A DNA stretch of 32,000 nucleotides from Acaryochloris marina MBIC11017 (GTDB lineage: Bacteria > Cyanobacteriota > Cyanobacteriia > Thermosynechococcales > Thermosynechococcaceae): contig NC_009925.1 of the NCBI RefSeq assembly GCF_000018105.1, positions 3,720,001 to 3,752,000 on the forward strand, read 5' to 3'. The position numbers and the translations under genes are program-made. Positions 11,545 to 29,949 of this stretch are shown here, in pieces (within the stretch, counting starts at the first letter, position 1; each line of letters opens with the position of its first letter). A model generated the notes under the pieces. That model searched no databases. It was not told the origin of the DNA and worked only from the letters and a program-made list of their open reading frames with translations.

Positions 11545-12018
11545 CTAAAGCTCTAAGCGCATTTCGTTGGACGGTGTAAAGCCAATCTGCTCATAGACGG
11601 GTTTGCCCCAAGGGGAAGCATGGAGGATGGCATGGGTACAATGTTGCAATCGCAAATATTCCACAGCCACTTCAGTCAGTTGCCGACCAAACCCCTGACG
11701 ACGGTAGGCTGCTTCCACATAGACGCCCCAAATATAGCCATAGTGACGTTGGTCTTGGCTAATCAGAAATGGATACAGCCCCGAAAAGACTTGACAGCCC
11801 ACCGATCCGACAATGTCCTCATCCAGAGAGGCGATATAGCCCTGATAACCCAACTGATCGCGGGCCGTTGCCAGGAATGCTAAGGTGACGGCTTGCCAAT
11901 CCGGGCGGATCTGTTCAGCAGGGACCTGGTTATCCAGCCACATTTGGTAAAAATGCAGGGCAATCTGTTCATCATCAGCGGGGGTTGCAGGGCGAATCGT
12001 AAGAGAAGAGTCTTGCAT
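11545..12018 (-). CDS. GNAT family N-acetyltransferase
   Basis: The 157-aa ORF has an acetyl-CoA binding motif (YRRQGFGRQL) with typical spacing. Confidence 0.78.
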   Translation of the reverse strand: MQDSSLTIRPATPADDEQIALHFYQMWLDNQVPAEQIRPDWQAVTLAFLATARDQLGYQGYIASLDEDIVGSVGCQVFSGLYPFLISQDQRHYGYIWGVYVEAAYRRQGFGRQLTEVAVEYLRLQHCTHAILHASPWGKPVYEQIGFTPSNEMRLEL

Positions 12019-15562: not shown

Positions 15563-15643
15563 TCAGTGTTCTCCTGTATCTGAGATACGGACTTCGCTGG
15601 ATATTATGCCTGATCTAATCTCAATTCGCTGTTCTTCAGTGAT

Positions 15644-15680
15644 AAAAAACCCCAATCACATTACAATCTGCGCGATTGGG
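15644..15680 (-). terminator. Candidate Rho-independent terminator downstream of the Tat-signal small protein gene
   Basis: On the minus strand the sequence is cccaatcgcgcagattgtaatgtgattggg followed by gtttttt. The stem is 7-8 bp with a long loop and a T6 tail. Confidence 0.4.
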
Positions 15681-15760
15681 ACTATGCCATGGCCTCGCTT
15701 TAGGGAAGAGTCTCGCTGATGGGTTCATCTACCTTAGATGGCTTTGGCTCGAGACCGAGA

Positions 15761-16192
15761 TTAGACCAGGAGGCGAGTGAAGGCAGCTTGATAATACATG
15801 CTTGTCGTAGGTTCTCCTGTGGGAACCAGAAACAAGCTAAAGCGCCCCAGCTGACGATGCTGAATCTGATAAGTCCCTTGAGGTAAAGATTGGCCTTGGG
15901 GGTCTCGAAAAATAAGCGAAAATTGCTCCAACTGTTGGGACTGTCCAAGATCATCGACTTGCTCTAGCTGGAGGTGCAGCTGCTCTTCTCCTTCGGTGAA
16001 GACTTGAAATGTTTTATCCTTGAGGGTCTCAAAAGTAGAGCAATGCATCTGGCTCAAAGATGGATTGCTGGAATTCAATGTCTTAGCCCAGGTGTGAGAG
16101 TTTTGTTTAGTACCCAGGGGCAAGAAAGAAGTTCCAACTGTGATGAAAGTGGTGCCAGAGAATAAAAGAAAATGTCGTCGGGAAATACTCAT
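15761..16192 (-). CDS. Small Tat-exported protein (143 aa), paralog of the ORF at 17122-17433
   Basis: ATG at 16192 gives MSISRRHFLLFSGTTFITVG, a canonical S-R-R-x-F-L twin-arginine signal. The C-terminal ~50 aa align with the 17122 ORF (22 of 48 identical by hand; shared TYQ.QH..LG...FLVP......YY.A.F). The track start at 16216 is TTG. Confidence 0.65.
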   Translation of the reverse strand: MSISRRHFLLFSGTTFITVGTSFLPLGTKQNSHTWAKTLNSSNPSLSQMHCSTFETLKDKTFQVFTEGEEQLHLQLEQVDDLGQSQQLEQFSLIFRDPQGQSLPQGTYQIQHRQLGRFSLFLVPTGEPTTSMYYQAAFTRLLV

Positions 16193-16484
16193 AGCAGTAG
16201 ACTGATATCCATTCAACGCATAAAAATTTTTACTTCAAGCATTGGCCTGAAGATAATTGTTGCGGCCATTAAACATGAGTTTTTGTGTGCAATAGCTTCA
16301 CTCATATTTTATTGGCTGAAGCAAAATTGTAATCCTTGTAGCTAATTATAGAGCTTCACTTCAGAATAGAAATTAAGAAATAAGTAGTTTTAGGTGCATG
16401 CAAATAATTCATCTTATATAAAATAAAAAGCCTATCAGTTGAAGATATTTTAGAGGAAAATATTACGGCTTTTAGCAGGTGATT

Positions 16485-16961
16485 ATGCATTTGTCTATCG
16501 ACTTTCGTCCAATATGTGATGACGATCTCAATTATTTAAAGCAAATCTATGCAAGCACTCGTGCAGAAGAATTGCAGGTCTTATCCTGGAGTCAGGAAGA
16601 GAAGGAGATCTTCTTGCAGAGACAGTTTCAGGCCCAGCACCAATATTATCAGGCTCAGTTTAGAGAGGCTGAATATTTGATGATTTTGGAGGGAAATCAG
16701 CCAATTGGTCGCTTATATGTCGACCGACGCCCTGATGAGATTCGAATTATTGATATTGCTATTTTACCTGCCTATAGAGGACAAGGAATTGGTTCATCGC
16801 TACTACAGCAAATCTTAGCTGAAGGGCAGTGCTCACATAAATCCGTCAGGATTCATGTTGAGCAAAATAATAGAGCTTTAAAGTTATACCAACGTCTTGG
16901 GTTCCAAAAGAAATCTGAGAATGGTGTTTATTTTTTGATGGAATGGATGCCTAATTCTTAG
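16485..16961 (+). CDS. GNAT family N-acetyltransferase (158 aa) in an AT-rich setting
   Basis: ILPAYRGQGIGSSLL (acetyl-CoA motif A) and ALKLYQRLGF are present. The track start at 16479 is GTG, so I use ATG at 16485. Confidence 0.8.
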   Translation: MHLSIDFRPICDDDLNYLKQIYASTRAEELQVLSWSQEEKEIFLQRQFQAQHQYYQAQFREAEYLMILEGNQPIGRLYVDRRPDEIRIIDIAILPAYRGQGIGSSLLQQILAEGQCSHKSVRIHVEQNNRALKLYQRLGFQKKSENGVYFLMEWMPNS

Positions 16962-17121
16962 CGAAAATATATTTATAAGACAGCAGTTTTGGAGTGATTA
17001 TATTCATTTTTGATAGAAAAATAATGACTTTATAAACATAAGATAGAAAGACCTGTCTTGTGAGTGATTGAGGAGCTGTTAACGGTTAATAAAGATGACG
17101 TTATAGGTGCAAAGTGAGGCG

Positions 17122-17433
17122 ATGAGACTAGCAGAATTAACACAATCACAATTTTCAGACTATTTAGGGGATGCGTTCCGAATCGAAGGAGAATTGGAGG
17201 CATGCCTGAACCTTCAGTTGATTGAGGCGACCCATCTATCATCAGGACGCCATACGAAGTCCAACGGTCAACGTCCAGAACCTTTTGCTTTAGTTTTTCA
17301 AGGACCGCAAACTAGCCCTTTAGATCAAGCGACTTATCAGCTACAGCACGAGCATTTGGGAGAGCTGCCTGTGTTCTTGGTGCCTATTGATCAGGATGAA
17401 GAAGGGGTCTACTACGAGGCAATTTTTAATTAG
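17122..17433 (+). CDS. Small signal-less protein (103 aa), paralog of the ORF at 15761-16192, directly upstream of the tail-collar triad
   Basis: It shares FALVFQGPQ...ATYQLQHEHLGELPVFLVPI....GVYYEAIFN with the Tat-signal paralog. GTG at 17107 is an alternative start. Confidence 0.62.
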   Translation: MRLAELTQSQFSDYLGDAFRIEGELEACLNLQLIEATHLSSGRHTKSNGQRPEPFALVFQGPQTSPLDQATYQLQHEHLGELPVFLVPIDQDEEGVYYEAIFN

Positions 17434-17501
17434 GCTGACAGCATAATTCTGCAAGATAGCCACTGTTGAATGATTTATTTCAAATTGTGAGGGTATTGCT
17501 T

Positions 17502-18002
17502 ATGTCAGAACCGTTTTTAGCAGAAATACGAATAGTAGGCTTTAATTTTGCTCCGCGAGGTTGGGCTTTTTGCGATGGGCAAATTTTGCCGATTAATCAA
17601 AATCAATCACTTTATTCACTTTTAGGTACGACCTATGGCGGAGATGGTCGCACATCTTTTGCCCTGCCTGATTTGCGGGGGCGAACACCGATTCATGTCA
17701 GCAGTAGCCATCTCCAGGGACAAAAGGGAGGTGAAGAAACCCATACCTTGGCTGGGAATGAAATGCCACAACATACCCATCAACTTCAAGCCTCATCTAG
17801 TGCTGCGAATAACCCTATTCCGACTGGCCATGTGTTGGGAGAGGTCTCATCTGGGTTGTATCACAGCAATACTAACTCTGTAGCACTGCTTGCGGGCACA
17901 GTGACTAATGTTGGAGGTGGTCAGGGACACGATAATATGCAGCCCTATCTCGCTGTTAACTTCTGCATTGCCTTACAAGGTCTTTTCCCGTCCAGAAATT
18001 AG
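17502..18002 (+). CDS. Phage-tail-collar-domain protein, paralog 1 (166 aa)
   Basis: The start is MSEPFLAEIRIVGFNFAPRGWAFCDGQILPINQNQSLYSLLGTTYGGDGRTSFALPDLRGR, the hallmark of the Collar domain (Pfam PF07484 by recollection). HTH lies at 17772-17780. The C-terminus is GGGQGHDNMQPYLAVNFCIALQGLFPSRN. ATG at 17502 is preferred over the upstream alternative start in the track. Confidence 0.85.
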   Translation: MSEPFLAEIRIVGFNFAPRGWAFCDGQILPINQNQSLYSLLGTTYGGDGRTSFALPDLRGRTPIHVSSSHLQGQKGGEETHTLAGNEMPQHTHQLQASSSAANNPIPTGHVLGEVSSGLYHSNTNSVALLAGTVTNVGGGQGHDNMQPYLAVNFCIALQGLFPSRN

Positions 18003-18017
18003 TAGGAGATATCACTT

Positions 18018-18536
18018 ATGTCAGAACCTTTTGTTGGTGAGATCCGTATGTTTGCAGGCAATTTTGCCCCGCGTGGATGGGCGTTCTGTGATGGGCAACT
18101 GCTGGCTGTGTCCCAAAATGATGCTTTATTTTCTTTGCTTGGCACGATTTATGGCGGTGATGGTCGAACTACCTTTGGATTACCCGATCTGCGGGGACGT
18201 ATTCCCATTCATGCAGGGACAGGTCCAGGGCTTTCCCAGCGTAGGCTAGGTGCGAAAAGTGGTGTTGAGCAAGTCACCTTGACTGCAAATCAGCTACCCA
18301 GCCACACTCATACATTGCAAGCCTCAACTGACTTAGCTGATCAAACGGCACCACAGGGCAACGTCATAGCCCAGCCCTCAACACTGTCTCTCTATGCCCA
18401 AGAACCTATTGATACCAATATGAATGTTGCTGCCATTACCAGTGTGGGAGGGAGTCGAACGCACTCCAACCTACAGCCATTTGTATGTATCAATTTCATT
18501 ATTGCTTTGTTGGGTATCTACCCATCCCGTAACTAA
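18018..18536 (+). CDS. Phage-tail-collar-domain protein, paralog 2 (172 aa)
   Basis: It starts 15 nt after paralog 1, with an AGGAGA RBS. The first 60 aa are 44/60 identical to paralog 1 and 48/60 to paralog 3 (hand count). HTH lies at 18303-18311. Confidence 0.88.
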   Translation: MSEPFVGEIRMFAGNFAPRGWAFCDGQLLAVSQNDALFSLLGTIYGGDGRTTFGLPDLRGRIPIHAGTGPGLSQRRLGAKSGVEQVTLTANQLPSHTHTLQASTDLADQTAPQGNVIAQPSTLSLYAQEPIDTNMNVAAITSVGGSRTHSNLQPFVCINFIIALLGIYPSRN

Positions 18537-18546
18537 GGAGTGTTAC

Positions 18547-19065
18547 ATGTCCGAACCTTTTATTGCCGAAATTCGCATTTTTGCAGGCAACTTTGCACCA
18601 CGAGGTTGGGCCTTTTGTGATGGGCAATTGTTACCTGTTTCCCAAAACACCGCGCTCTTTTCTTTAATTGGCACAACCTATGGCGGTGATGGTCGTAGCA
18701 CTACGGCATTGCCTAATCTACAAGGACATGCGCCGATGCATCCAGGACGTGGTCCAGGTTTAACGTCTCGTAGTCTAGGTCAGAAGGGCGGAGCAGAAAT
18801 AATTACACTGTCTGAAGCTCAAATGCCTAACCATACCCATACGTTAAGAGCAACTTCGGAAACTGCTGAGCTTCAAGAACCTGGAACAGATCGGGCACTG
18901 GCTCGTTCTTCTCGGGGACTTGCCTATCAATCTGCTGCGACTAACCTCGTTACTATGGCTGACCTCCCTAATGCGGGAGGGAGCCAATCCCATAACAATA
19001 TGCAGCCCTATTTAGCTGTCAATTTTATTATTGCTTTGCAAGGGCTCTATCCATCGCGCAGCTAA
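18547..19065 (+). CDS. Phage-tail-collar-domain protein, paralog 3 (172 aa)
   Basis: It starts 10 nt after paralog 2, with an AAGGAG RBS. HTH lies at 18832-18840. The track ORF from 18424 is an upstream extension overlapping paralog 2. Confidence 0.88.
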   Translation: MSEPFIAEIRIFAGNFAPRGWAFCDGQLLPVSQNTALFSLIGTTYGGDGRSTTALPNLQGHAPMHPGRGPGLTSRSLGQKGGAEIITLSEAQMPNHTHTLRATSETAELQEPGTDRALARSSRGLAYQSAATNLVTMADLPNAGGSQSHNNMQPYLAVNFIIALQGLYPSRS

Positions 19066-19084
19066 TTGTCTAGTTTTTAGACTG

Positions 19085-19119
19085 TTGGTGGTTAGCTTCA
19101 AACTAGCCACCAATTTTTG
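19085..19119 (+). terminator. Rho-independent terminator of the tail-collar operon, in the 90-bp gap to the convergent giant gene
   Basis: ttggtggttag (19085-19095), 7-nt loop, ctagccaccaa (19103-19113; one G-U pair), then TTTTT (19114-19118). Confidence 0.7.
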
Positions 19120-19155
19120 TCTGAGCGTAGACCGGGACAGTCATACTTGGGTCAA

Positions 19156-22100
19156 TTAAGGAGGGGTGGGGCAAGAAACACCACCACTGAAGGTGAGGCC
19201 GGCATCAATAGTGGTGTTGTCAGCCACACCATTATTGCGTCCTGTTAAATAGGTTTCTACATCTGTTGCACTGGTCCCCAATCCTGTGAAGCCCGGCAAA
19301 ACAAACGAATCTGTGCTGCTTCTCAATCTCAAGCGAATATCAATAACCCCGGCTTCTGTCGTGATTGTGTTAGCTAGCGCACCAGCCCCGCCAATATCAG
19401 CGCAAGCATTTATGTCGTCAGTTGTCGAGCCTGAGGCACCAGATTGAAAGAAAATGCCTGGTAGGCCAAATATATTGGATTGTGTCAACGTGTTACCGGT
19501 GATTGTTGCATTGAATGTGTTGTCTCCATCTCTAGCAAATAGTCTAACAACTTCATTAAAGCCATCATTGACGAGTGTGTTATCAGTAATTGTGATTGTC
19601 AATGTTCCGTTACCCTGAGCAATTGCTTCAATAGGTTCACCGAAATTATTCGTATCGGTCAGACTAATAAAATTGTTGTCAATATTGCCCTGTAAGCGTC
19701 CAGATGTTGTCGATTGACTACCCAGTAGCACGTTAATCCCATCAGAAGCTGCATTGCTAAAGAGCACGGGATTACCTGCTGTTCCGTGATTTCGGATGTC
19801 GAAATTTACGACTGCATTTAGATTCGACGTAATCTGACCAAACGTATTTGTTCCAGTGATGGTGTTTCCATCTAACACCACATCAGCTGTCCCTTGATCC
19901 GTGACATTAATGATGAAAGCGCTGGCAGGAATATTCTGAATGGTGTTATTGGCAATATTGGCCGTTGTTAAGACTGAAGTTCCCGTCCCTTCGTAGACAA
20001 AGGCACTGTCTTGCGTATTATTCGAGATAGTATTGCCTGTTAAGGTCAAGCTGCTAAGCGTGCCCGAACTATTGCGAATATCAATGCCAAAGGATTGACT
20101 ACTATCGATGAGACTATTGGTAATGGATACTGCGCCAGTGACTCCATTGAGAGGTGTTGTTGTATCACCAAACTGAATTCCAGATTCTCCGTTAGCATTG
20201 CCGTTACGGAGAATGCGCCCGCTGGTCAGGGTAAACCCATTCACGTTGTCGCCAAAAATACCATCATCGCCGCCATCGGTGACATCTATAAAGCTGAGTG
20301 AAATATTTTGGGCATTACTCAAACGGATGCCTGCCCCTGTGCTGTTATCAATGAGCCCTCCCGATCCTAAGGTTGCTCCATCTCCTGTCACATTGAAACC
20401 GCCACTACCAACATTATTTAAATTGATGCCATTAGTTCCACCATTTGCTGAAATGCTCTGAAAAGTGACTCCACTTGTACCTATCGTGGTGTTGGCTATA
20501 TTGAGCGCTGTGGTTGCCCCGGAATTAATTGTGTTGGCTGTACCCGTAACATTCACTGTGCCCCCGTTGGTGGCATTGAAGCCTATGCCTGTAGTGGTAT
20601 CGATATCTAAATTGCTACCTGCAAAATTAATCGTAGCGCCAGTATTGCTGGTCAAATTGACCGCATTGACCGTCCCAGAATTCAACGTGAGGGGACCCGT
20701 AATGGCGACCGTACCCCCTGTCTTATTCGCCACATTGACATTGCGAGCGCTGAAAGCTGTTCCAGTTCCACGGGTAATAGTGATATTACCCGTCCCACCA
20801 TTCGCGTTGAGTAATGCCCCAGCAACATTGATAGTGTTGTTCTGGGCGGTCACATTCGTCGTCAGGTTCGCAACATTGAAGACCGTAGCATTGGCACTAA
20901 CATTTTGAATGACATTGTTCTGAATCGTGATACCCGTGCCATTACTGAACCCAGCGGTGGCATTATCAATATCGAAAATGTTAGCCGTGCCAGTGCTGTA
21001 TTCAAAGGTATTGTGCTCGATGGTATTGTTGCCCCCTAGTGTCAAGACATCGCTACCCGCTGTTGAGTTGGTGATCACGGCAGAGTTGGCTGTGATAGTC
21101 CCCCCGACTGTACTGAACGTGCCTAAAATATTGGCCGGTTTTATAGACCCAAACGATACCGAGTTAGTGTTGGCAAAACCTGTAATGCTTTGACCTGTCG
21201 CCAGGGTAAAGCCTGTAGCTCCCTGGGCCGTTACATCAATATTGCCGATAAAGGCAAAGGTTTCGGTTCCGGCCAATAGATCCGCCGCAGCTACAGAGAT
21301 CGTACTGATGGATTGACTTAGGCCAAAGCTCCCAGCGGTGAGCGTGCCGCCATTCTGACTGACAAAGGTGGCTGAGGCTGCACCCGCAGGGAAATTCGCT
21401 GCATCGCCTGCACCAAACGTGACATCTTCAAAATCAAAACTGGAGGCGGCTAGGGTGCCATTCCCGGCATCTACGGTGAAGGCTCCTGCTTGAGCGTTGA
21501 CATTAATGCTGGACCCGGTATCACTGGCAGATTCACCATCGCCAAAGGTAAACTGAACCGCCGCAGTATTATCGATGACGACCCCTCGGTGCAGATCCGT
21601 AATACTGCTGGATGGGCCTGTTGCTGGTGTGGTTTGGGTCCCTAGATTGACAGTCTGATTGCCAGCCAATGCGGTTAAATCAACCCCGATAGAGTTAGTC
21701 GAGGTATCAGGACCAGAAATGGCGACTGAGTTATAGGCCGCAGTCCCTGATAAGGTGGCTCCATTGAAGTTGATGCCGACCTGATTGGCGGCAGCCCCCA
21801 CATCTGTAATTGTGGTGGTACCGAACGTTGTTGCAGCGTTCGTGCCGACATAGCGAATGCCACTCGTGCTGGCGGTTGTCCCCAGGTCGATATTGACGGT
21901 GCCAAAGGTGAGGGTGCCACTATTGCTGGTTAAGGCAATGGCATTACCTGTGGGGCTGTTAACGGTTGTAGTGCCAGTGACTGCAAAGGAACCCGTCAAA
22001 GTGTTGAGGGAAATACCACTGGCTCCTGCTGTAGAAGAGACGGTATCAACAGTAATGTTAGACGCAATTCCATTGAGGTTGATAGCCTGACCAGATGTTG

Positions 22101-25100
22101 TGGTGACGGACTCATCCCCTGCTGTAGCCGCTACACCCACTGTGCCGCCAGTGGTGGCATTCAAGCCTGTGCCTGTGGTGGTATCAATGTTTAAACCACC
22201 ATTGAAATTGATAGTGCTGCCTGTATTGTTGGTGAGGTTAATGCCAGGGGCAGTACTGGTATTGGCAGTAACTAAGCCATTAAAAGCGGTGGTGTTTCCG
22301 GTTTTGTTGTTGATATTGACCGCACTGGCTGCATTATTTTGGGTAATGGTGCCAGCGTAGGTGACGGAGGCGGTGCTGGTGTCTTCATTAAACGCAGTTC
22401 CTGATGGGCTGGTGATGGACGTATTGGCACTAAAGGTGAACGTGCCCGCAGACCCATTGAGGATATCAATTCCAGCATCACCACCATTCAGAGTTGTAGT
22501 GCCGTTGAAGTTGTAGGTGCCATCAGCATTATTAAACTGCAGGCCATTGCCATTCGTGGCATTAATGTTGGTTGTGTTGGCAAAAGTGATGGTGCCTGTA
22601 TGCCCACTTTGAACATTAACGGCGCTAACATTATTGGCCTGAGCAATCGAACTGGTGCCGTTATAGTTGATATTGGCTGCACCACCGTCAACATTCAAAC
22701 TAATGCCAGTGGGACTGGTGATAGTTGTGTTTGCAAAGGTGAATGTGCCTGCAGACCCATTGAGGATATCAATTCCAGCATCACTGCCATTCAGGGTTGT
22801 GGTGCCGTTGAAGTTGTAGGTGCCATCAGCATTGTTAAACTGCAAGCCATTGCCATTCGTGGCACTTAGCATTCCAGTTTGGAAGGTGACCGTTCCTGTA
22901 GAATGGCCGCCCGTTACATTGACCGTGCTGGCATTATTGGCCTGAGCGATACTGCCGCTATAGGTAATGCTGGCCGTACCCCCATTGAGATTGAATGCTG
23001 TACTTGTGGGATTGGTGATGGAGCTAGCGGTATCAAAATCAAAGGTGGCGTTGCCTCCGCTGATATCCACGCCAATACCGGTGGCGTTGGTGATGTCTAA
23101 ATTATCGATGTTGATGGTGCCAGCGGCATTGGTAAAGACGACCCCCCCAGCTAGGGATACATTCTGGAGGGTAGTTGTCCCGGTAGCATTTGTGATTTGA
23201 AGCGATGTCCCCGTGGTGCCCGTACTGGTGATATTAGAGAGCATCGTATCCGCAGCATTAACAATGACATCAGTGTTATTGCCGCTAAAGGTGACATTGT
23301 TGAGGGTGGTATTGGTCGAAGGTGTAATTTCAATCCCAGTAGTGAAATTCTGGATGGTTGTGTTTTGAATGGTGGTATTGTTTGCACCTGTTAAACCTGC
23401 GATCGCACGGGTAGCCGTACTACTACCATCGAAGATCACATTCTGAATCGTATTGTTATTCGCCAGGGTGATAACGTTATTCCCAGCGCTAGTACTGAGG
23501 ACCGCAGCACCATTCCCCGTGGGATCTGTGATGTTGGTACTTGGGAAAGTACCTAATACATTAGCGGGTTGCTGAAAACCAAAGGTTTGACCATTACCAA
23601 ACCCATCGATGGCATCGCCAGTACCCAGGGTAAAGCTATTGCCTGCCGCCGCCAGCAGCGTATCAAAGTTATAGGTAGTGCCATTGTTGATAAAGACAAA
23701 GGTGTTGACGGTAGCCAAATTCGCTTGAGTTTGAGCAGCAGCAACACTAGCGGCTTGAGTTGGAGAGCTACCATTCCCCGTCCCCGTATCAGAGACAAAG
23801 AAGAGCTGCCCCGCGACCCCGGCTCCACCTGGGAAGTTGGGATTGCCCGTAAAGGTGACATCGTTAAAGTTATAGGTGCCACTAGCAGGATCTAAACCGA
23901 CAGCCTGCACTGTAAAGCCACCCGCTGTGACGCTAATTGTACTTGCTTGATCGACGGTATCTTCACCATCCCCAAAGATAAAGTTGACGTTTGCCGTTGT
24001 TCCGACGGCTTGACTGGAAGACAGCTCTACTCCAATTTCGACATTGGCGATGGAACTGGGAGTGTCCGTACCTGGGTTCATTGAGTCACCCACCTGGATC
24101 AGACGATTGCCGAGGGTGGAGGACAAGTCGATACCCACAGACCCTGCAGTTCCCGTTCCTGCAATGTTCAAAGACGTAAACCGGACCCCACCTACTGGAT
24201 CAGACCCAGCAAAATCGACTCCCGTATCGTCTCCGAAATTCGTAATGCTGGTGTTGCCAAAGGCAATAGCTCCATTATTAACCCCTTCAATATCAATACC
24301 CGCTGCATCAATCACACGAGGCGTGAATAATGGTGTGGGGACAATCGGCGCTCCAGGGTTACTGATATTGGTCGTGCCAAAGGTAACGTTGCCTGGATTA
24401 TTAGAAATAAGAATGCCATCTTCAACAGTGGTGTTGATAGTGGTAGTTCCTGTGGCGGTGAAGGTTCCTGTATTCCCTGTCAATTGAATGCCTACAGTGG
24501 GTCCTCCGTTAGTCAGGACATTACCTGTGGCTGGAGTGATTGTAGAGGGGGCAATACTAATTGAATTGAAAGCAAAGTTCGCGCTGGAGTTGCTAATATT
24601 TATCCCTTGCGTTGTTCCTGCACTAGGATTAGGACTAAAGAATTGTGCACCTATCTCTTGAGAAATTTCTGGTGCGGTAATAGAAGTTGCCCCAGTGACC
24701 GTGAATGAGCCTGTGACTTGATTAGCCACAAATCCACTGTCAAATCCATCCCCATTTAAATTTAGACTAGATAGAGTGATTTCAGAATTGACCTGGTTAA
24801 GGTCAATTTGGCCCGCATCGACATTGCCATCTAAGATCCGAATCGTCAAATCAGCACTACTCGCATTGGTTAAGATGGCGGCATTGGTTACGTTGGCATT
24901 GAATTGGTCAAAGCGAATCGTTCCTCTACTGCTCCGGCCAGTATCAAGTGTTGCTGCAGTAAAGCCAAAAGAAGTCCGTTCCGTGGGACTGCCAAGGGTT
25001 AAGGTACCCCCCTGTACTTCTTGCAAACCCGCCGTGTTGGGATCTGCATCAAACACGACCCCGTCAAACCGGAAGCCGTTCGCCATAAAAGCGGGATTGA

Positions 25101-28100
25101 AGGCTGTGGAATCTCCTTGCAGCGTGTTGTTACTAAAATCGGTAACGATTAAGCCTTCTGTAATGCCCTGAATAACAACCCCCTGATCTTCTGTTTTGAA
25201 GATGCTGTTGGCAATGGATAGTACTAACTGATCGTCATCACGGGTTTCTGCAAACACCCCAAAATCCAAGCCTCCAATACTGGCAGTGGCATCATGAATG
25301 ATAGAAATGCCGTCGATTGCCACCGTGAGGTTGCGAGTCGTTGTAACATCATTCTGAATAATAGAAAAGCTATTTTGATTGCCGCCCACTGGTGAGCTGA
25401 GGGTGCCGCCATTCACGGTAAATGCGCCATCTAAATTACTGAGGGTTATCCCAGAACCAGAGGTTGACCGAGTGGCGCTAATGGAATTGAAGGTTGTATT
25501 CACTGTACTATCGGCAATATTGACGGCCAGACCATCCGTAGTGACGACGGTGTAGGTGCCTGTAGAGCCCATTGCCCCCACATTGACCGTACTGCCTGTG
25601 ACATTGAATCCAATGGCTGTCGTTGTATCTATATCTAGTCCGCCTGTAAAGCTGACCGTGCTTCCCGCATTACTTGTTAGATTCACTCCAGTTGCCGTAC
25701 CGGTATTGGCGGTGACTAAGCCATTAAAGGTGGTGGTGCCTCCAGTCTTGTTGTTGATATTGATGGCACTAACCGCATTATTTTGAGTAATCGTGCCGGT
25801 ATAGGTAACAGTTGCAGTACTTGTATCTTCGTTGTAGGCAATTCCGGTTGGATTCGTGATGGCGGTATTGGCAAACGCAAAGGTGCCTCCAGAGCCATTG
25901 AGAATATCAATACCCGCATCCCCGCCATTGAGCGTAATCGGACTATTAAAGGTGTAAGTTCCATCAGCGTTGTCAAACTGCAACCCATTGCCGTTAGTGG
26001 CATTGATGGTGGTGGCCGCATCAACCGTCAAGGCACCCGTGTGTCCCCCGCTAACGTTGACTGTGGCTAACGGATTGCCGTTGTTGAGGGTGGAGCCTGT
26101 AATATTGACGTTTACAGTGCCGCCATTAAAGTCCACCGTTGGCAACGTAGACTGTTGAATCGTGGCTGTTCCCGCTAGACCTGTACCAGAAACGGCTGGC
26201 CCATTACTGCCATTATCCAGAACGACTCCATTGATAGTGTTGTTATTGGCGAAGGCCACGGTTGCAGGCGTTCCTGCTCCCGTGGTGGTCAAGGTAGGGA
26301 CTCCGTTACCAGTCGTGTCTGTAATTGACCCTGTTGAGGCATTCAGTAGCACATTGCCGGGACCAGCAAACGGAACATTGATTGTGGATCCGTTGCGGAA
26401 ACTGAGAATTTGTTGATTAGCAGTCAGGTCAAAAGAGCCCCCTGCATTGATGGCATCAATGACATCTGTTCCAGATGTATTCACCAAGATAAAAATATCG
26501 GCCGTTGGGCTGGCCTCTGCAGCGGTAATACTGCCTGGATCTGTAATCGTGGCTCCTGAGCCATTCGTATTCTGATCAACGAAGAATAACTCAGGGAACG
26601 TAAACCCAAGTCCCGGACTGCCTGCAAAGGCAACATCTCGGAAGTTATAGGTGCCATTTGTCCCCACAGCACTGGCATCAATGGGAGTCGTCGCTGCAAT
26701 CGTACTGGGAGCATCCACCGTCAACTCCCCATCCCCAAAGATAAAGTTGGCATTGGCATTATTCAATTGCACCCCAACACTCACCCCCGCAATCGAACTG
26801 GGCGTATCTCCATTGATATTGGCTGGATCACCTAAGGTAATCACCCGATTACCCGTGGTATTCGTCAGGTCAATCCCCGTGCCCACATTGCCCGTATTCG
26901 TAATCGCCACCGTGGGAGCCGTGACGCCGACATTCGCCCCCGCCAGATTAATCCCTGTTCCCGTAAAGCCATTAATCGTCAATGCCCCCAAGTTAAACAC
27001 TGTGGTGGCATCATTAATTCCTGAAAGATCCAAGCCATCTAACCCAGCGTTGGTGATGGTCACGGGACCAAAGGTATAGGTCCCTGTACTATTGGTCGCT
27101 AAGAACCCATCTCCAGTGGTGTTGGCAATCGTAGTGGTTCCAGATACCCCCACCGAACCTGTTACTGTATCCAGGTTGATGCCATTCGTTCCCCCAGTCG
27201 AAGACACTGAATCAAAGGTGATGTTGGCCGCTATATTGTTGAGATTCAGAGCAGTGCCACTGGTCGTGGTGACCGATTCATCCCCACTTGTGGCAGTGAC
27301 ATTGACGGTGCCGCCATTGGTGGCGTTAAATCCAGTCCCTGTGGTGGTATCAATATCTAAGCCCCCATTAAAGGCAACAGTATTCCCGGTATTGTTGGTC
27401 AGGTTCACTCCAGGAGCAGTACTAGTATTAGCCGTCACCAACCCATTAAAGGTGGTTGTCCCTCCTGTCTTATCCGCAATATTGACCGCACTGGCTGGAT
27501 TATTTTGGGTAACCGTACCGTTATACGTAACGGTTGTGGTTCCACCGGCAACATTGAATGCTGAACTCGTGGCATTGGTAATGGAGCTGGTGTCGTCAAA
27601 AGTGAAGGTGGCATCACCGCCTGTAATATCGATACTGTTATCGCCAGCATTGGTGATATCGACATTAGTGGCCGTAATCGTTCCTGATGGGTTGGCAAAC
27701 TGGAGACCGTCTCCACCTGAATTGGAGATATTGACATTGGTGAGGGTGGTGGTGCCTGTGGCATTGAGAATCTGAATGGCGGGACCCGTGGCGTTGGTGC
27801 TCGCAACGTTGGCTAAGGTCGTATTGGCGGCATTGACGATGGCATCTGTAGCGTTGTTGTTGAAGACCACATTGTCGATGGTGGTGTTGGTGGAGGGGGT
27901 GATCTGAATGCCAGCGATGGTGAAGTTCCCGAGGCTGCTGTTGCGGATGGTGGTGTTGGTGGCTCCTGTAACGGCAGCTATTCCCCGAGGAGCTGTATTT
28001 TGACCATTGAAGGCAAGACCATCGATGGTGTTGTTATTGGCGAGGGTGAGGACGTTGTTGTTGGCACCATTGACCAGTTGGGGTTGTCCGGCATCGAAGA

Positions 28101-29949
28101 TGGTGACTGAGCCCAGGTTGGGAACAGTGAAGACAAAGTTGGGAGTGGTGCCGACCCCTAGTGCTTGTTGTCCCTCCTTTAGGGAGAGGGTTCCACCGGT
28201 TCCGGTTTGGGTATCGATGGCTCCAGCATCGTTGAGAAAGAAGAGAATATCGTTGGCTTGGGTAAGAGCGCTGGCCTGAGCAATAGTTAAAGGACTGCTT
28301 TGGGTTCCACTGCCAGCGGTGCCATCTCCATCGATGAAGAAAATATTGATGGGGAGTCCAGTGGCGGGGTTAAGGGCTACTTGGGAATTTGAGGCAATAA
28401 TCTGAGGTCCAAGGGGAGAAAGGGAACCTTGACCCGCTGCCGCTGCCTGGAGTTCAGCCATAGAAATAGGACGATTGATGTCCTGGGCAAAGGTCGTGAT
28501 TTCGTACTCGCGCTCAATCGGGCGACGGGCTAATCGCTGGGTAAGGGTGAGGGGCTGAGAGCGTTTAGGGCCTCCAAAGGGAATCCCCAGACGAACAAAG
28601 CCTTCGAGTTCTGAGCCTCGGGTTTCATCAAAGCGGAAACGGCCGCCAACTTGTAACAAGCCTCCGTTCATCCCTAAAGGATCTTGAACTTCGAGTTGGG
28701 TACGGGCCATGGGGCCATCGATGCTGAGGGTTTCGCGACTGTCAAAGAAGAAGTAGCCTCCAAACAGGCCGAGACTGACTTTGTCATTGAAGTGATGACG
28801 ATGGCCTGCTTCAAAGTCAAACCCGGCCAGGGCTCGTTCACGAGCTTCTAGAGTAAGGGTTTGTTGGACAATGTTGGTGCCCAGGCCATTCGCTCTCGGC
28901 TGAATCCCTAAAACACCGTTGATGGTGCGTTGACCGACGACATTAGGGTTACTGCCAGGGAGATAGCCGTTAACTCTAAACTCGAATTTCTTGTTGACGA
29001 GTTCAGCCCCAAGGCTGCCTTGGTGATACTGAAAGCCGTTTTCACTCCGTTTAGAATCGTAGAAGGCATGGGTGCCGAGAATCCAAGGGTTCTCGTTCGA
29101 GGTGTTGAGGATACGGCGATAGGCGAGACCAAGGTTGCCCAGGAAGGTTTCGTTACTGCCTCCTTCAAAATGAACATCAGCAAAGGCGAAGGATTGATCA
29201 TCCTGCCAGAAGGGAAGTCGGAGGTTGATCCCTCCAAATTGACGACGGGTACTGCCACGGAATTCGGTATCGACAAAGTAGGGAATGCCTAGGTTGGTAG
29301 AAGTGTCTGCTTCTGTATTGGTGTCGTTAGAAGTATCTGATTTCTCGCCAGTTTTGGTGTCCGTAGGGACATTAGGCTCTGCTTGGACTAAGCGGTGGGA
29401 TGTTGCTGCAGGAAGATTAGATGGAGTCGTTCCTTTATTGATCGCGACAACTTGTGGTGCTGTTGTCCATCCTGCTTCTGCCAACGTGCGAGGCGGAGAG
29501 GCTGTAAAGGGTGGATTGGTGTCAATCGTTGGAGGAAGCTGGTCGATGACAGGCTGATCCGTCAGGTCCTTGGGTGAAGGCTGGGGGTGTTGGTCAGATT
29601 CTAAAGGAGCTGTTAGGGATGCTTCAGGACGCTGTGTGATGCTCTCATCCTGGGGTAAAGGAGATAGAGAATGTTCGGGAACGGTGTCAGCAGAGTCAAG
29701 CGCCAATTGAAAGTCGCTGGGTGGAGAGATGTAGGCTGCAGTAATCTCCGATTCTGCCGAAGGTGGTGCCTCTAATGGTGCTGGATCAGTACCGATATTC
29801 CCTAGAGGCTCGGTTGCTTGGGGTAGGGCAGCCGAGATCTCTTCGGCCAGCGCCGCCATGGGCCATACCCCTGCGATCAGCAAACTAAGTGCTAAGGATT
29901 TCCCAAGGTGAGATCGCACCTTGGGATCAATACTCATCCAGCCAGCCAT
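19156..29949 (-). CDS. Giant (3597 aa) outer-membrane inverse-autotransporter-like adhesin with a parallel beta-helix repeat passenger
   Basis: A single uninterrupted ORF with an ATG start and GAGG 7 nt upstream. It has a signal peptide, a Pro-rich spacer, a barrel signature and about 3100 aa of T/N/G-rich beta-helix-type repeats. See the sub-features and findings. Confidence 0.85.
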   Translation of the reverse strand: MAGWMSIDPKVRSHLGKSLALSLLIAGVWPMAALAEEISAALPQATEPLGNIGTDPAPLEAPPSAESEITAAYISPPSDFQLALDSADTVPEHSLSPLPQDESITQRPEASLTAPLESDQHPQPSPKDLTDQPVIDQLPPTIDTNPPFTASPPRTLAEAGWTTAPQVVAINKGTTPSNLPAATSHRLVQAEPNVPTDTKTGEKSDTSNDTNTEADTSTNLGIPYFVDTEFRGSTRRQFGGINLRLPFWQDDQSFAFADVHFEGGSNETFLGNLGLAYRRILNTSNENPWILGTHAFYDSKRSENGFQYHQGSLGAELVNKKFEFRVNGYLPGSNPNVVGQRTINGVLGIQPRANGLGTNIVQQTLTLEARERALAGFDFEAGHRHHFNDKVSLGLFGGYFFFDSRETLSIDGPMARTQLEVQDPLGMNGGLLQVGGRFRFDETRGSELEGFVRLGIPFGGPKRSQPLTLTQRLARRPIEREYEITTFAQDINRPISMAELQAAAAGQGSLSPLGPQIIASNSQVALNPATGLPINIFFIDGDGTAGSGTQSSPLTIAQASALTQANDILFFLNDAGAIDTQTGTGGTLSLKEGQQALGVGTTPNFVFTVPNLGSVTIFDAGQPQLVNGANNNVLTLANNNTIDGLAFNGQNTAPRGIAAVTGATNTTIRNSSLGNFTIAGIQITPSTNTTIDNVVFNNNATDAIVNAANTTLANVASTNATGPAIQILNATGTTTLTNVNISNSGGDGLQFANPSGTITATNVDITNAGDNSIDITGGDATFTFDDTSSITNATSSAFNVAGGTTTVTYNGTVTQNNPASAVNIADKTGGTTTFNGLVTANTSTAPGVNLTNNTGNTVAFNGGLDIDTTTGTGFNATNGGTVNVTATSGDESVTTTSGTALNLNNIAANITFDSVSSTGGTNGINLDTVTGSVGVSGTTTIANTTGDGFLATNSTGTYTFGPVTITNAGLDGLDLSGINDATTVFNLGALTINGFTGTGINLAGANVGVTAPTVAITNTGNVGTGIDLTNTTGNRVITLGDPANINGDTPSSIAGVSVGVQLNNANANFIFGDGELTVDAPSTIAATTPIDASAVGTNGTYNFRDVAFAGSPGLGFTFPELFFVDQNTNGSGATITDPGSITAAEASPTADIFILVNTSGTDVIDAINAGGSFDLTANQQILSFRNGSTINVPFAGPGNVLLNASTGSITDTTGNGVPTLTTTGAGTPATVAFANNNTINGVVLDNGSNGPAVSGTGLAGTATIQQSTLPTVDFNGGTVNVNITGSTLNNGNPLATVNVSGGHTGALTVDAATTINATNGNGLQFDNADGTYTFNSPITLNGGDAGIDILNGSGGTFAFANTAITNPTGIAYNEDTSTATVTYTGTITQNNAVSAININNKTGGTTTFNGLVTANTGTATGVNLTSNAGSTVSFTGGLDIDTTTAIGFNVTGSTVNVGAMGSTGTYTVVTTDGLAVNIADSTVNTTFNSISATRSTSGSGITLSNLDGAFTVNGGTLSSPVGGNQNSFSIIQNDVTTTRNLTVAIDGISIIHDATASIGGLDFGVFAETRDDDQLVLSIANSIFKTEDQGVVIQGITEGLIVTDFSNNTLQGDSTAFNPAFMANGFRFDGVVFDADPNTAGLQEVQGGTLTLGSPTERTSFGFTAATLDTGRSSRGTIRFDQFNANVTNAAILTNASSADLTIRILDGNVDAGQIDLNQVNSEITLSSLNLNGDGFDSGFVANQVTGSFTVTGATSITAPEISQEIGAQFFSPNPSAGTTQGINISNSSANFAFNSISIAPSTITPATGNVLTNGGPTVGIQLTGNTGTFTATGTTTINTTVEDGILISNNPGNVTFGTTNISNPGAPIVPTPLFTPRVIDAAGIDIEGVNNGAIAFGNTSITNFGDDTGVDFAGSDPVGGVRFTSLNIAGTGTAGSVGIDLSSTLGNRLIQVGDSMNPGTDTPSSIANVEIGVELSSSQAVGTTANVNFIFGDGEDTVDQASTISVTAGGFTVQAVGLDPASGTYNFNDVTFTGNPNFPGGAGVAGQLFFVSDTGTGNGSSPTQAASVAAAQTQANLATVNTFVFINNGTTYNFDTLLAAAGNSFTLGTGDAIDGFGNGQTFGFQQPANVLGTFPSTNITDPTGNGAAVLSTSAGNNVITLANNNTIQNVIFDGSSTATRAIAGLTGANNTTIQNTTIQNFTTGIEITPSTNTTLNNVTFSGNNTDVIVNAADTMLSNITSTGTTGTSLQITNATGTTTLQNVSLAGGVVFTNAAGTINIDNLDITNATGIGVDISGGNATFDFDTASSITNPTSTAFNLNGGTASITYSGSIAQANNASTVNVTGGHSTGTVTFQTGMLSATNGNGLQFNNADGTYNFNGTTTLNGSDAGIDILNGSAGTFTFANTTITSPTGISLNVDGGAANINYNGTSSIAQANNVSAVNVQSGHTGTITFANTTNINATNGNGLQFNNADGTYNFNGTTTLNGGDAGIDILNGSAGTFTFSANTSITSPSGTAFNEDTSTASVTYAGTITQNNAASAVNINNKTGNTTAFNGLVTANTSTAPGINLTNNTGSTINFNGGLNIDTTTGTGLNATTGGTVGVAATAGDESVTTTSGQAINLNGIASNITVDTVSSTAGASGISLNTLTGSFAVTGTTTVNSPTGNAIALTSNSGTLTFGTVNIDLGTTASTSGIRYVGTNAATTFGTTTITDVGAAANQVGINFNGATLSGTAAYNSVAISGPDTSTNSIGVDLTALAGNQTVNLGTQTTPATGPSSSITDLHRGVVIDNTAAVQFTFGDGESASDTGSSINVNAQAGAFTVDAGNGTLAASSFDFEDVTFGAGDAANFPAGAASATFVSQNGGTLTAGSFGLSQSISTISVAAADLLAGTETFAFIGNIDVTAQGATGFTLATGQSITGFANTNSVSFGSIKPANILGTFSTVGGTITANSAVITNSTAGSDVLTLGGNNTIEHNTFEYSTGTANIFDIDNATAGFSNGTGITIQNNVIQNVSANATVFNVANLTTNVTAQNNTINVAGALLNANGGTGNITITRGTGTAFSARNVNVANKTGGTVAITGPLTLNSGTVNAVNLTSNTGATINFAGSNLDIDTTTGIGFNATNGGTVNVTGTANTINSGATTALNIANTTIGTSGVTFQSISANGGTNGINLNNVGSGGFNVTGDGATLGSGGLIDNSTGAGIRLSNAQNISLSFIDVTDGGDDGIFGDNVNGFTLTSGRILRNGNANGESGIQFGDTTTPLNGVTGAVSITNSLIDSSQSFGIDIRNSSGTLSSLTLTGNTISNNTQDSAFVYEGTGTSVLTTANIANNTIQNIPASAFIINVTDQGTADVVLDGNTITGTNTFGQITSNLNAVVNFDIRNHGTAGNPVLFSNAASDGINVLLGSQSTTSGRLQGNIDNNFISLTDTNNFGEPIEAIAQGNGTLTITITDNTLVNDGFNEVVRLFARDGDNTFNATITGNTLTQSNIFGLPGIFFQSGASGSTTDDINACADIGGAGALANTITTEAGVIDIRLRLRSSTDSFVLPGFTGLGTSATDVETYLTGRNNGVADNTTIDAGLTFSGGVSCPTPP
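19159..21372 (-). repeat. Passenger super-repeat U4 (aa 2860-3597), with a divergent, more highly charged C-terminal beta-helix and a Cys pair
   Basis: It begins ATFVSQNGGTL...TFAFIGN...LTLGGNNTIE. The distal part has PbH1-like turns (GIRLSNAQNISLSFIDVTDGGDDGIFGDNVNGFTLTSGRILRNG...). Confidence 0.55.
21373..23808 (-). repeat. Passenger super-repeat U3 (aa 2048-2859)
   Basis: It begins QLFFVSDTGTGNGSSPTQAASVAAAQ...TFVFINN...ITLANNNTI and ends ...QFTFGDGESASD...SSFDFEDVTF. Confidence 0.55.
22333..22938 (-). repeat. Tandem duplication of a 303-bp (101-aa) unit inside U3
   Basis: 22442-22562 and 22745-22865 are offset by exactly 303 nt and differ at about 7 of 120 positions by hand comparison. 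The peptides are NATNGNGLQFNNADGTYNFNGTTTLNG[GS]DAGIDILNGSAGTFTF. Confidence 0.75.
23809..26592 (-). repeat. Passenger super-repeat U2 (aa 1120-2047), carrying a unique, more highly charged insert
   Basis: It begins ELFFVDQNTNGSGATITDPGSITAAEA..ADIFILVN...VAFANNNTI and ends ...NFIFGDGEDTVD...GTYNFNDVTF. Confidence 0.55.
26593..28350 (-). repeat. Passenger super-repeat U1 (aa 534-1119): beta-helix domain with its own N-terminal cap-like segment
   Basis: It begins INIFFIDGDGTAGSGTQSSPLTIAQA..ANDILFFLN...LTLANNNTI and ends ...NFIFGDGELTVD...GTYNFRDVAF. Confidence 0.55.
28570..29292 (-). other. Inverse-autotransporter (intimin/invasin family) beta-barrel domain signature (aa ~220-460)
   Basis: NLGLAYRRIL....WILGTHAFYDSKRSENGFQYHQGSLGAELVNKKFEFRVNGYLPGS...ERALAGFDFEAGH follows the IAT_beta pattern as I recall it (NlGlGyR, GvNaFYD, R.glGaE, NgYlPls, Gydle). 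Alternating hydrophobic strands continue up to RLGIPFGG. Confidence 0.62.
29293..29844 (-). other. Pro/Ser/Thr/Asp/Glu-rich low-complexity spacer (aa 36-219), presumably periplasmic
   Basis: Composition is visible in the translation (PAPLEAPPSAESE..., HPQPSPKDLTDQPVIDQLPPTIDTNPP...). I did not recognise LysM or SLH motifs. Confidence 0.5.
29845..29949 (-). other. Sec signal peptide of the giant protein (aa 1-35)
   Basis: MAGWMSIDPKVRSHLGKSLALSLLIAGVWPMAALA/EE has a basic n-region, a hydrophobic core and an A-x-A cleavage site. Confidence 0.6.

Follow-up and report, generated by a model that had tools for sequence, protein, structure and literature searches.

What do three genes for phage-tail-like proteins do in a stretch of cyanobacterial DNA that holds no phage? 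The question is raised by a segment of 32,000 nucleotides from Acaryochloris marina MBIC11017 (NC_009925.1, positions 3,720,001 to 3,752,000 of the forward strand; hereafter the window, with coordinates counted from its first letter), which carries a tight run of three tail-collar paralogues, A, B and C, each with one conserved His-Thr-His (HTH). An initial interpretation based on the letters alone (the sequence-only reading) saw in them a candidate heterotrimeric module resembling the tip of a phage fibre. Our own answer is broader. We propose that A, B and C would be the core of an ancient cellular, non-phage module that also comprises a GNAT acetyltransferase, proteins of the family DUF6916 and a giant adhesin, and to this reading, with its mechanism taken as a whole, we give a probability of about 0.5. 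The three collar genes are:

17502..18002, + strand: collar paralogue A, 166 amino acids (aa), starting with MSEPF, collar at aa 8-63, HTH at aa 91-93 (ABW28678.1)
18018..18536, + strand: collar paralogue B, 172 aa, HTH at aa 96-98, head at about aa 99-142 (ABW28679.1)
18547..19065, + strand: collar paralogue C, 172 aa, HTH at aa 96-98 (ABW28680.1)

The observation from which the question started is borne out as a whole: there are three open reading frames (ORFs) on the + strand at these coordinates, separated by 15 and 10 nt, and their products are 100% identical to A. marina MBIC11017 ABW28678, ABW28679 and ABW28680. Pairwise identity over the first 60 aa is 73, 73 and 80%, the same figures as had been given before, and over the full length it is 52-55%. 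The common mid motif, the HTH and the C-terminal motif can all be seen in the three proteins; after the HTH, A continues with a hypervariable head and then a conserved C-terminal strand. An AGGAG-type ribosome-binding site had been claimed for each gene, and it is found before B and C, but A is preceded only by GAGGG. The ORFs 17908..18249 and 18424..19065 (the latter an N-terminal extension of C), as well as the antisense ORFs, are mechanical artefacts in alternative frames. A 348-aa apparent fusion of B and C in a Logan assembly (P0400, corresponding to window 18018..19065) is no Rosetta-stone fusion but an artefact of assembly or sequencing, in which a frameshift leads into the alternative-frame ORF 18424..19065.

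As predicted, Pfam detects the Collar family (PF07484) in all three proteins at aa 7-63, with E-values of 5e-29 (A), 2e-30 (B) and 4e-27 (C) and bit scores of 100.5, 104.9 and 94.5 against a cutoff of 24. The C-terminal head domain of T4 Gp10 (Gp10_C, PF21939) aligns over about aa 60-159 with 28.3 bits for A, 23.5 for B and 19.2 for C; its gathering score of 27 is reached by A, with B and C below. In a sequence search of the PDB, a long tail fibre (8kec) matched with an E-value of 1e-8 and with its HQH aligned to the HTH of the triad, and T4 gp12 matched with an E-value of 1e-5 in the collar region only. The proteins start with MSEPF five residues before the collar, without a shaft or a baseplate-attachment domain, and inspection of their N-termini agrees with the earlier description of all three as signal-less. 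Searches of A, B, C and DUF6916 against PADLOC and NCBIfam returned no match. Judged by these sequence features, A, B and C are shaft-less fibre tips of the T4 gp12/gp10 type, that is, a collar followed by a small head with an invariant His-x-His (HxH). Current annotation is as uninformative as had been stated, with the proteins named “phage tail protein”, “tail fiber protein” or “microcystin-dependent protein” only, and no paper in the searchable literature assigns a function to the bacterial triad.

Comparison of the 24 other ORFs of the window with Pfam revealed no phage structural or integrase gene. Twenty-two of them belong to ordinary cellular families of the sort usual in a cyanobacterium (among others CbiC, SOD, phytoene synthase, Mg-protoporphyrin methyltransferase, FUR, peroxiredoxin and Rieske), and two have no match. 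The description of the triad as lying outside any phage context is thus true, but the genes are no orphans, because members of the same module lie alongside that the sequence-only reading overlooked: a GNAT gene, two DUF6916 genes and a convergent gene for a protein of 3597 aa. The company of a GNAT, of DUF6916 (one copy with a twin-arginine, or Tat, signal) and of a giant adhesin changes the likely biology of the triad.

We collected 80 loci in a genome scan limited to one genome per species, chosen by similarity to B. They span at least 10 phyla, with lineages that include Acidobacteriota, Chloroflexota, Bacteroidota/Rhodothermota, Planctomycetota, Deinococcota, Gemmatimonadota and Calditrichota as well as Actinomycetes, Desulfobacterota and Alpha- and Gammaproteobacteria. 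Protein B has at least 8000 scored clusters at 90% identity, and its best relatives among the matches listed, 74-81% identical, come from unrelated phyla. When the ORFs of the 80 loci were sorted by comparison with the window's own A, B and C, the order A-B-C emerged in 73 (69 single triads and 4 double ones, A-B-C-A-B-C); five of the remaining loci, which lie at or close to a contig end, are incomplete and two are rearranged. With that order in 73 of 80 loci the three genes form a conserved triad, as had been supposed, and in this sample do not occur independently of one another. Each member is 60-77% identical to its own orthologue and about 50% identical to the other two paralogues, and the A-B and B-C gaps have a median of 12 nt and a minimum of 8-9. 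Paralogue identity is equal within a locus (0.501) and between loci (0.497), which indicates that there has been no gene conversion and that the triplication is older than the spread of the triad.

Two complete triads stand in tandem in four loci (L024, L040, L044 and L053), with the order kept in both halves and the second triad only 53-67% identical to that of the window; triads thus duplicate as whole units. The same arrangement was reached from another starting point, since six look-ups from distant DUF6916 proteins led to five modules, all of them A-B-C. One of the five (L130:9853-13441) is decaying, with C fragmented and A a weak remnant; in this locus a PhdYeFM-PIN toxin-antitoxin pair is inserted between the GNAT gene and the triad.

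Among viral sequences, an IMG/VR search for virophage triads orthologous to A, B and C found only L083/L084 and L085, the last of which reads A-B-C-GNAT at a contig end, and the other viral matches were collar-only, inside longer tail proteins. In the short IMG/VR contigs L083 (2099-3968) and L084 (1148-3018), each member of the triad has a Sec signal peptide (MKKQI..LFCGTNQTQAQ), cleaved just before the ..PF(I/L)GE.. start. These triads are 51-56% identical to A, B and C without one-to-one orthology; they carry a viral label and look like Bacteroidota, and the contigs are probably bacterial. A separate case is a protein of 780 aa on a viral contig (L086:4681-7023) in which the complete collar-plus-head unit occurs twice in tandem, at aa 208-361 and 459-605.

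Conservation is distributed very unevenly along the proteins. Identity between orthologues from different loci is, by region:

N-terminus and collar (aa 1-66): 0.89-0.94
linker: 0.55-0.75
head, about 45 aa between HxH and GGxxxHxN: 0.22-0.25
C-terminal 30 aa: 0.76-0.81

The suggestion that the part following the HxH is a fast-evolving tip therefore holds, with 22-25% identity between orthologues in the head as against 89-94% in the collar. Head identity between orthologues barely exceeds that between paralogues (0.16-0.20), and head length is nearly constant at 42-55 residues. Compared with the window, the amino acids of the collar are 91-96% identical, whereas fourfold third positions of conserved codons are at 28-29%, which is saturation. 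Conservation of the collar despite saturated synonymous sites points to very strong purifying selection and not to recent transfer. The same contrast is seen at short range: in the closest relative (97% identity) all five of five substitutions lie in the head, and in relatives at 76-81% identity the first 57 residues have at most two substitutions (none in four of five relatives). The N-terminal MSEPF is invariant across all three paralogues. The conserved pair of His that had been noticed is equally constant, both HxH His being invariant in 54 aligned sequences and at least 95% conserved in the 74-80 orthologues available per paralogue, and His65 and His149 (B numbering) are invariant as well. 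Among 66 strongly conserved columns, 13 residues are fixed differently in A, B and C (each at 90% or more within its paralogue), and 12 of these 13 lie in the scaffold. A codon-based test has indicated positive selection among the tail-collar paralogues of Solibacter (PMC3174227). A scaffold kept nearly unchanged despite saturated synonymous sites, together with a hypervariable head, is characteristic of a recognition device.

To find the partners of the triad, we clustered all neighbours in the 80 loci, which gave four recurrent families besides the collar genes. The accompanying features in the window are:

16485..16961, + strand: GNAT acetyltransferase, 158 aa (mechanical ORF start 16479; Pfam Acetyltransf_1, E 2e-16)
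17122..17433, + strand: DUF6916 “a”, 103 aa, signal-less (mechanical ORF start 17107; PF21880, E 1.6e-27)
15761..16192, - strand: DUF6916 “b”, with a Tat signal (PF21880, E 1e-25, aa 59-146 of the ORF)
19156..29949, - strand: giant surface protein, 3597 aa, signal-like N-terminus by inspection, convergent with the triad
19084..19114, + strand: terminator-like hairpin, 12-bp stem and 7-nt loop, with trailing TTTTTG to 19120

The GNAT is the most regular companion, with homologues (38-59% identity) in 74 of the 80 loci. Its best PDB sequence matches, with E-values of 2e-11 to 2e-10, are the tandem-GNAT entries 7wx5, deposited as “N-acetyltransferase”, and 6wqb/6wqc, deposited as “N-terminal acetyltransferase”; Naa50 (1e-5) and RimI (1e-4) follow at lower rank among generic GNATs. 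All NCBIfam scores are below cutoff, and membership of a RimI or Naa family is not indicated. That cellular tail-collar proteins may be substrates of co-encoded modifying enzymes has been predicted before (Iyer et al. 2010; PMC2938197). A toxin-antitoxin pair made up of GNAT and DUF6916 was considered and rejected, since the two genes are often convergent and similarity to known toxins is missing. The window contains a second GNAT gene (11545..12018, - strand), which is unrelated and lies 4.5 kb upstream of the module.

DUF6916 accompanies the triad in 63 of 80 loci. It is a very large family (9044 clusters at 50% identity), whose members are proteins of about 100 aa that stand alone, and no paper in the searchable literature mentions it. 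An AlphaFold2 (AF2) model of DUF6916a, with a mean confidence (pLDDT) of 80.8, is an all-beta small barrel or sandwich, for which Foldseek found no significant match in the PDB or BFVD (best E-values 0.12 and 0.027, respectively; TM-score at most 0.5). A faint resemblance to the barrels of phage head-tail adaptor or stopper proteins and of PilZ was below significance and was not used.

The second copy, DUF6916b, is divergent from the GNAT gene and probably starts at the ATG at 16192 (the mechanical ORF begins at 16216); a close relative (L131) has a gene of 143 aa called at the corresponding position. Its N-terminus, MSISRRHFLLFSGTTFITVGTSFLPLG...HTWA/K (the slash marking the putative cleavage site), is a classical twin-arginine signal (SISRRHFLLF) that lies some 50 aa in front of the domain: SISRRHFLLFSGTTFITVGTSFLPLG...HTWA/K contains the S/T-R-R-x-F-L motif, an h-region and an AxA-like site. 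A subfamily hidden Markov model identified Tat-motif copies of DUF6916 in 21 module loci, usually directly after C or before A, with N-termini such as MKRRKFSAGL, MNRRDFAKKT, MKRRNFTQSL, SRRKFLRTGL and ATRREFLKKC. They occur in Gammaproteobacteria, Planctomycetota, Gemmatimonadota, Acidobacteriota and this cyanobacterium. Together with the Sec-signal triads of L083 and L084, these copies suggest that part of the module and, in some lineages, the whole triad is exported.

The giant protein has an IAT_beta barrel (PF11924) at aa 219-383 (nt 28801..29295; 44.9 bits against a cutoff of 22.3), which identifies it as an inverse autotransporter. The barrel is followed by a long passenger of about 3100 aa of beta-helix-like repeats that ends in a C-terminal domain of about 580 aa (nt 19159..20952), with ...GGVSCPTPP as its last residues. 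This domain has no Pfam, NCBIfam or PDB match beyond a sub-threshold Beta_helix at aa 3173-3324, and yet it is homologous to giant proteins in 35 of the 80 loci (27-50% identity, E 1e-7 to 1e-48), mostly to their C-terminal part. Upstream sequence of 2.5 kb or more is available for 59 loci, and in 28 of these a giant protein of this kind ends at most 500 nt upstream of A on the same strand. The giant proteins at other loci have 1000-3090 aa, and those N-termini that we read look like signal peptides. The C-terminal domain has a conserved Cys-Pro-rich tail and a second conserved Cys about 60-90 residues upstream, and the two Cys may form a disulfide. With the barrel at the N-terminus, the conserved C-terminal domain of the window's protein would be the distal tip of a surface fibre. 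In other phyla the N-terminal regions of the giant proteins are unlike that of the window (by inspection of about 10 sequences). Ten of them (L004, L013, L014, L017, L018, L020, L028, L029, L056 and L063) have a common N-terminal domain after the signal peptide, with the pattern ..Y.V.LD.D.N..TGC...G.E......PVGLN.G..G.DV.E, where the window has the IAT barrel.

Two further families recur at triads. A signal-less protein of 400-450 aa is encoded between C and GNAT in 17 loci, mostly of Alphaproteobacteria (e.g., L041:1200-2477 and L128:9854-11077), and has no PDB, NCBIfam or Pfam match except a faint one to a PLL-lectin beta-propeller in L128. A protein of about 180 aa, without a match in Pfam, NCBIfam or the PDB, is found beside triads in seven loci (e.g., L024:6408-6950).

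The hairpin at 19084..19114 is placed between the converging triad operon and giant gene, and its 12-pair stem is the longest terminator-like stem within 15600-19300; the scan found no such stem upstream of gene C in the interval from GNAT to C. It is probably a terminator and may be active in both directions. In an RNA-seq study of A. marina MBIC11017 and MU13 (PMC11633204), genes of the triad operon are among the 35 most induced in low-light far-red relative to high-light white. For MBIC11017 all six genes (AM1_3684 and AM1_3686-3690) are listed, with log2 fold changes of -3.2 to -4.0, and for MU13 four of those orthologues. The study annotates AM1_3684 and AM1_3687 as conserved hypothetical, AM1_3686 as an acetyltransferase and AM1_3688-3690 as phage tail collar. 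By annotation and gene order, A, B and C are AM1_3688-3690; we infer that AM1_3687 is DUF6916a, and AM1_3684 is probably the Tat-signal copy of DUF6916, with AM1_3685 as the alternative. The module genes are, according to these data, coordinately expressed.

How could these parts work together? The C-terminal domains of the T4 short tail fibre protein gp12 and of gp10 form a knitted trimer with Zn on its axis. In the mechanism that we propose, A, B and C would co-fold, still in the cytoplasm, to give a single “knitted” 1:1:1 trimer with pseudo-threefold symmetry and a mass of about 55 kDa, in which six His may hold a metal, by analogy with gp12. The near-invariant collars would provide the scaffold for assembly and docking, and the three different, fast-evolving heads would provide an asymmetric ligand-binding surface; here the conservation is observed and the roles are our interpretation of it. 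The GNAT would modify the subunits, most plausibly by N-alpha-acetylating Ser2 of MSEPF, which is the simplest guess because this start is common to all three substrates. DUF6916 would bind the knob, and its Tat-signal copy, where present, would carry the folded, signal-less knob across the inner membrane by hitch-hiking; export in the folded state would be well matched to a trimer that is knitted and contains a metal. Once outside the cytoplasm, the knob would join the giant adhesin in recognising variable ligands (probably glycans) at the surface of other cells or substrates. A more specific version, which we consider doubtful, is that in many phyla an N-acetylated, metal-containing A:B:C tip is exported by Tat on DUF6916 and docked on the C-terminal beta-helix domain of giant adhesins. 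On that version the tip might, no less tentatively, be an exchangeable receptor-binding device for cell-cell or host attachment, a cellular counterpart of the tips of phage tail fibres.

A number of points weigh against the proposed module and its mechanism. The loci were chosen by similarity to B, which biases the sample towards intact triads. Of the loci with enough flank, about half lack the giant gene, and a Tat-signal DUF6916 is found in only about one quarter of modules, the rest having no small component with an export signal; either Tat export is thus not used universally or the gene for the carrier lies elsewhere. Once folded and in the periplasm, the knob would still have to cross the outer membrane to reach the adhesin tip, and no route for this is evident. 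The assignment of N-terminal acetylation to the GNAT is built on weak similarity (E 1e-4 to 2e-11), and its best NCBIfam family, RimI TIGR01575, scores 56.2 bits, below the cutoff of 86.4. Finally, the AF2 monomer model of B (54 sequences, about 75% identity) has a pLDDT of 39.9 and is unusable, so the geometry of the His cannot be read from it; such a low value fits an obligately intertwined trimer.

The stoichiometry of the trimer is where the main alternative lies. T4 gp12, gp10 and gp37 are homotrimers, as are all of the characterised collar fibres that we matched (T4 gp12 in 1ocy/5iv5, and 8kec), and A, B and C may by the same token form three homotrimers, A3, B3 and C3, a fixed repertoire of lectin-like knobs with different specificities expressed from one operon. 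In favour of homotrimers, each paralogue keeps every motif, including the HxH; single-copy cellular collar genes exist (RhiB); and there is no covariation in head length among A, B and C (rho 0-0.12), although head length is uninformative as a proxy for co-packing. Such a repertoire, however, would not lead one to expect a copy number of strictly three in a fixed order across at least 10 phyla, duplication only as whole triads, uniform spacers of 8-13 nt, or paralogue-specific residues that are fixed in the scaffold and not in the tip alone. Further, the collar triad of the virophage DSLV2, which has the same size (58.3 kDa in total), co-purifies experimentally as a 1:1:1 heterotrimer (PMC12724248; J Virol 2025). 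Fixed number and order, spacing with room for a ribosome-binding site only, whole-unit duplication, paralogue-specific scaffold residues and this precedent together lead us to favour a 1:1:1 heterotrimer over three homotrimers, with modest confidence; we regard the homotrimers as unlikely but as a serious competitor.

The other alternatives concern where the proteins act and whether they act at all. A cytoplasmic sensor or adaptor, in which the head would bind a variable intracellular target such as phage proteins, the GNAT would be effector or modifier and the link to the adhesin would be genomic only, would account for the absence of signal peptides from A, B, C, the GNAT and the common DUF6916a, for the roughly three quarters of modules that show no Tat copy, and for a hypervariable part on a conserved scaffold, which is typical of arms-race receptors. 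But no component matches a PADLOC defence model, no toxin of the TacT/AtaT type appears by molecule name among the PDB matches of the GNAT (E up to 1e-3), the frequently convergent GNAT and DUF6916 genes are unlike a toxin-antitoxin layout, and the Tat-signal paralogue, the Sec-signal relatives and the signal-peptide adhesin all point outside the cytoplasm, so that we consider this role improbable. Still less probable is a role of the triad as the source of fibre tips for a contractile injection system whose genes lie elsewhere in the genome. In MU13, it is true, the list of the 35 genes most induced in low-light far-red contains triad genes as well as a tail-sheath/baseplate cluster (orthologues of AM1_0267-0278 and AM1_6406; PMC11633204), but this co-induction is shared with photosystem and many other genes and is unspecific, no sheath, tube or baseplate family recurs among the neighbours in the 80 loci, and proteins that start five residues before the collar lack a domain for a shaft or for baseplate attachment. 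A decayed prophage remnant without cellular function might be suspected from the name “phage tail protein” in the source databases and from remote matches to phage minor tail proteins (up to 39% identity). This idea is effectively refuted by conservation, with collars 91-96% conserved across phyla at saturated synonymous sites, and it agrees neither with conserved non-phage partners in a window free of phage genes nor with strong, coordinated expression. The cellular module built around an A:B:C trimer is the reading that we retain.

What is already known of this system is the collar domain family and, since 2025, the idea of a heterotrimeric collar triad in a virophage. Two things are undescribed in the searchable literature: the cellular module of A-B-C, GNAT, DUF6916 (cytoplasmic and Tat copies) and an adhesin with a shared tip domain, and the combination of an extremely constrained scaffold with a hypervariable head. 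The module is very common, in at least 10 phyla. Should the model of a heterotrimer and its export be true, a large class of misannotated “phage” genes would be explained, Tat would gain a new type of cargo, and giant adhesins would be seen to have a modular tip that confers specificity. Users of prophage predictors should be cautious, because these collar genes are cellular. A vague annotation is now open to concrete experiments in a culturable organism.

Comparison with characterised systems shows which parts of the module have precedents. Tat hitch-hiking is exemplified by hydrogenases, in which the small subunit carries the signal-less large subunit. The module resembles these cases in that DUF6916b has S-R-R-x-F-L and the proposed cargo would be signal-less, oligomeric and metal-containing and would fold in the cytoplasm; it differs in that hitch-hiking is purely inferred here and that only about one module in four has the Tat copy. 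With the inverse autotransporters (intimin/invasin, type Ve), the giant protein of the window shares its signal peptide, its IAT_beta barrel and a long passenger at the C-terminus, of which the last domain would be the distal tip, but its passenger of about 3100 aa is beta-helix-like and the last 580 aa or so are shared with giant proteins next to triads elsewhere.

Among collar proteins, RhiB of Rhizobium leguminosarum (rhiABCD; COG4675, “microcystin-dependent protein”) is likewise a PF07484 protein of cells and not of phages, and its expression is tied to specific ecological conditions. Its collar gene, however, stands singly, in the company of the unrelated RhiA and RhiC and of quorum-sensing regulators, with no triad, GNAT or DUF6916. 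The collar triad of virophage DSLV2, which forms fibres of about 16 nm and binds cyanobacterial lipopolysaccharide (PMC12724248), is similar in layout, with three consecutive PF07484 genes on the same strand and of similar size (about 170-200 aa). Its genes are virophage genes beside capsid genes, without GNAT, DUF6916 or adhesin, whereas the window is without viral genes. T4 gp12 and gp10 have in common with A, B and C the collar match and an invariant HxH about 25-35 residues after the collar, and the head aligns to Gp10_C with a score that reaches the cutoff in A and falls below it in B and C. They differ in that the triad is cellular and without shaft or virion attachment, with no phage genes in the window or recurrent in the 80 loci, and in that a single phage gene is replaced by three fixed paralogues with GNAT, DUF6916 and adhesin partners. 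Compared with phage fibres generally, the collar of the triad is under far stronger constraint than is usual there.

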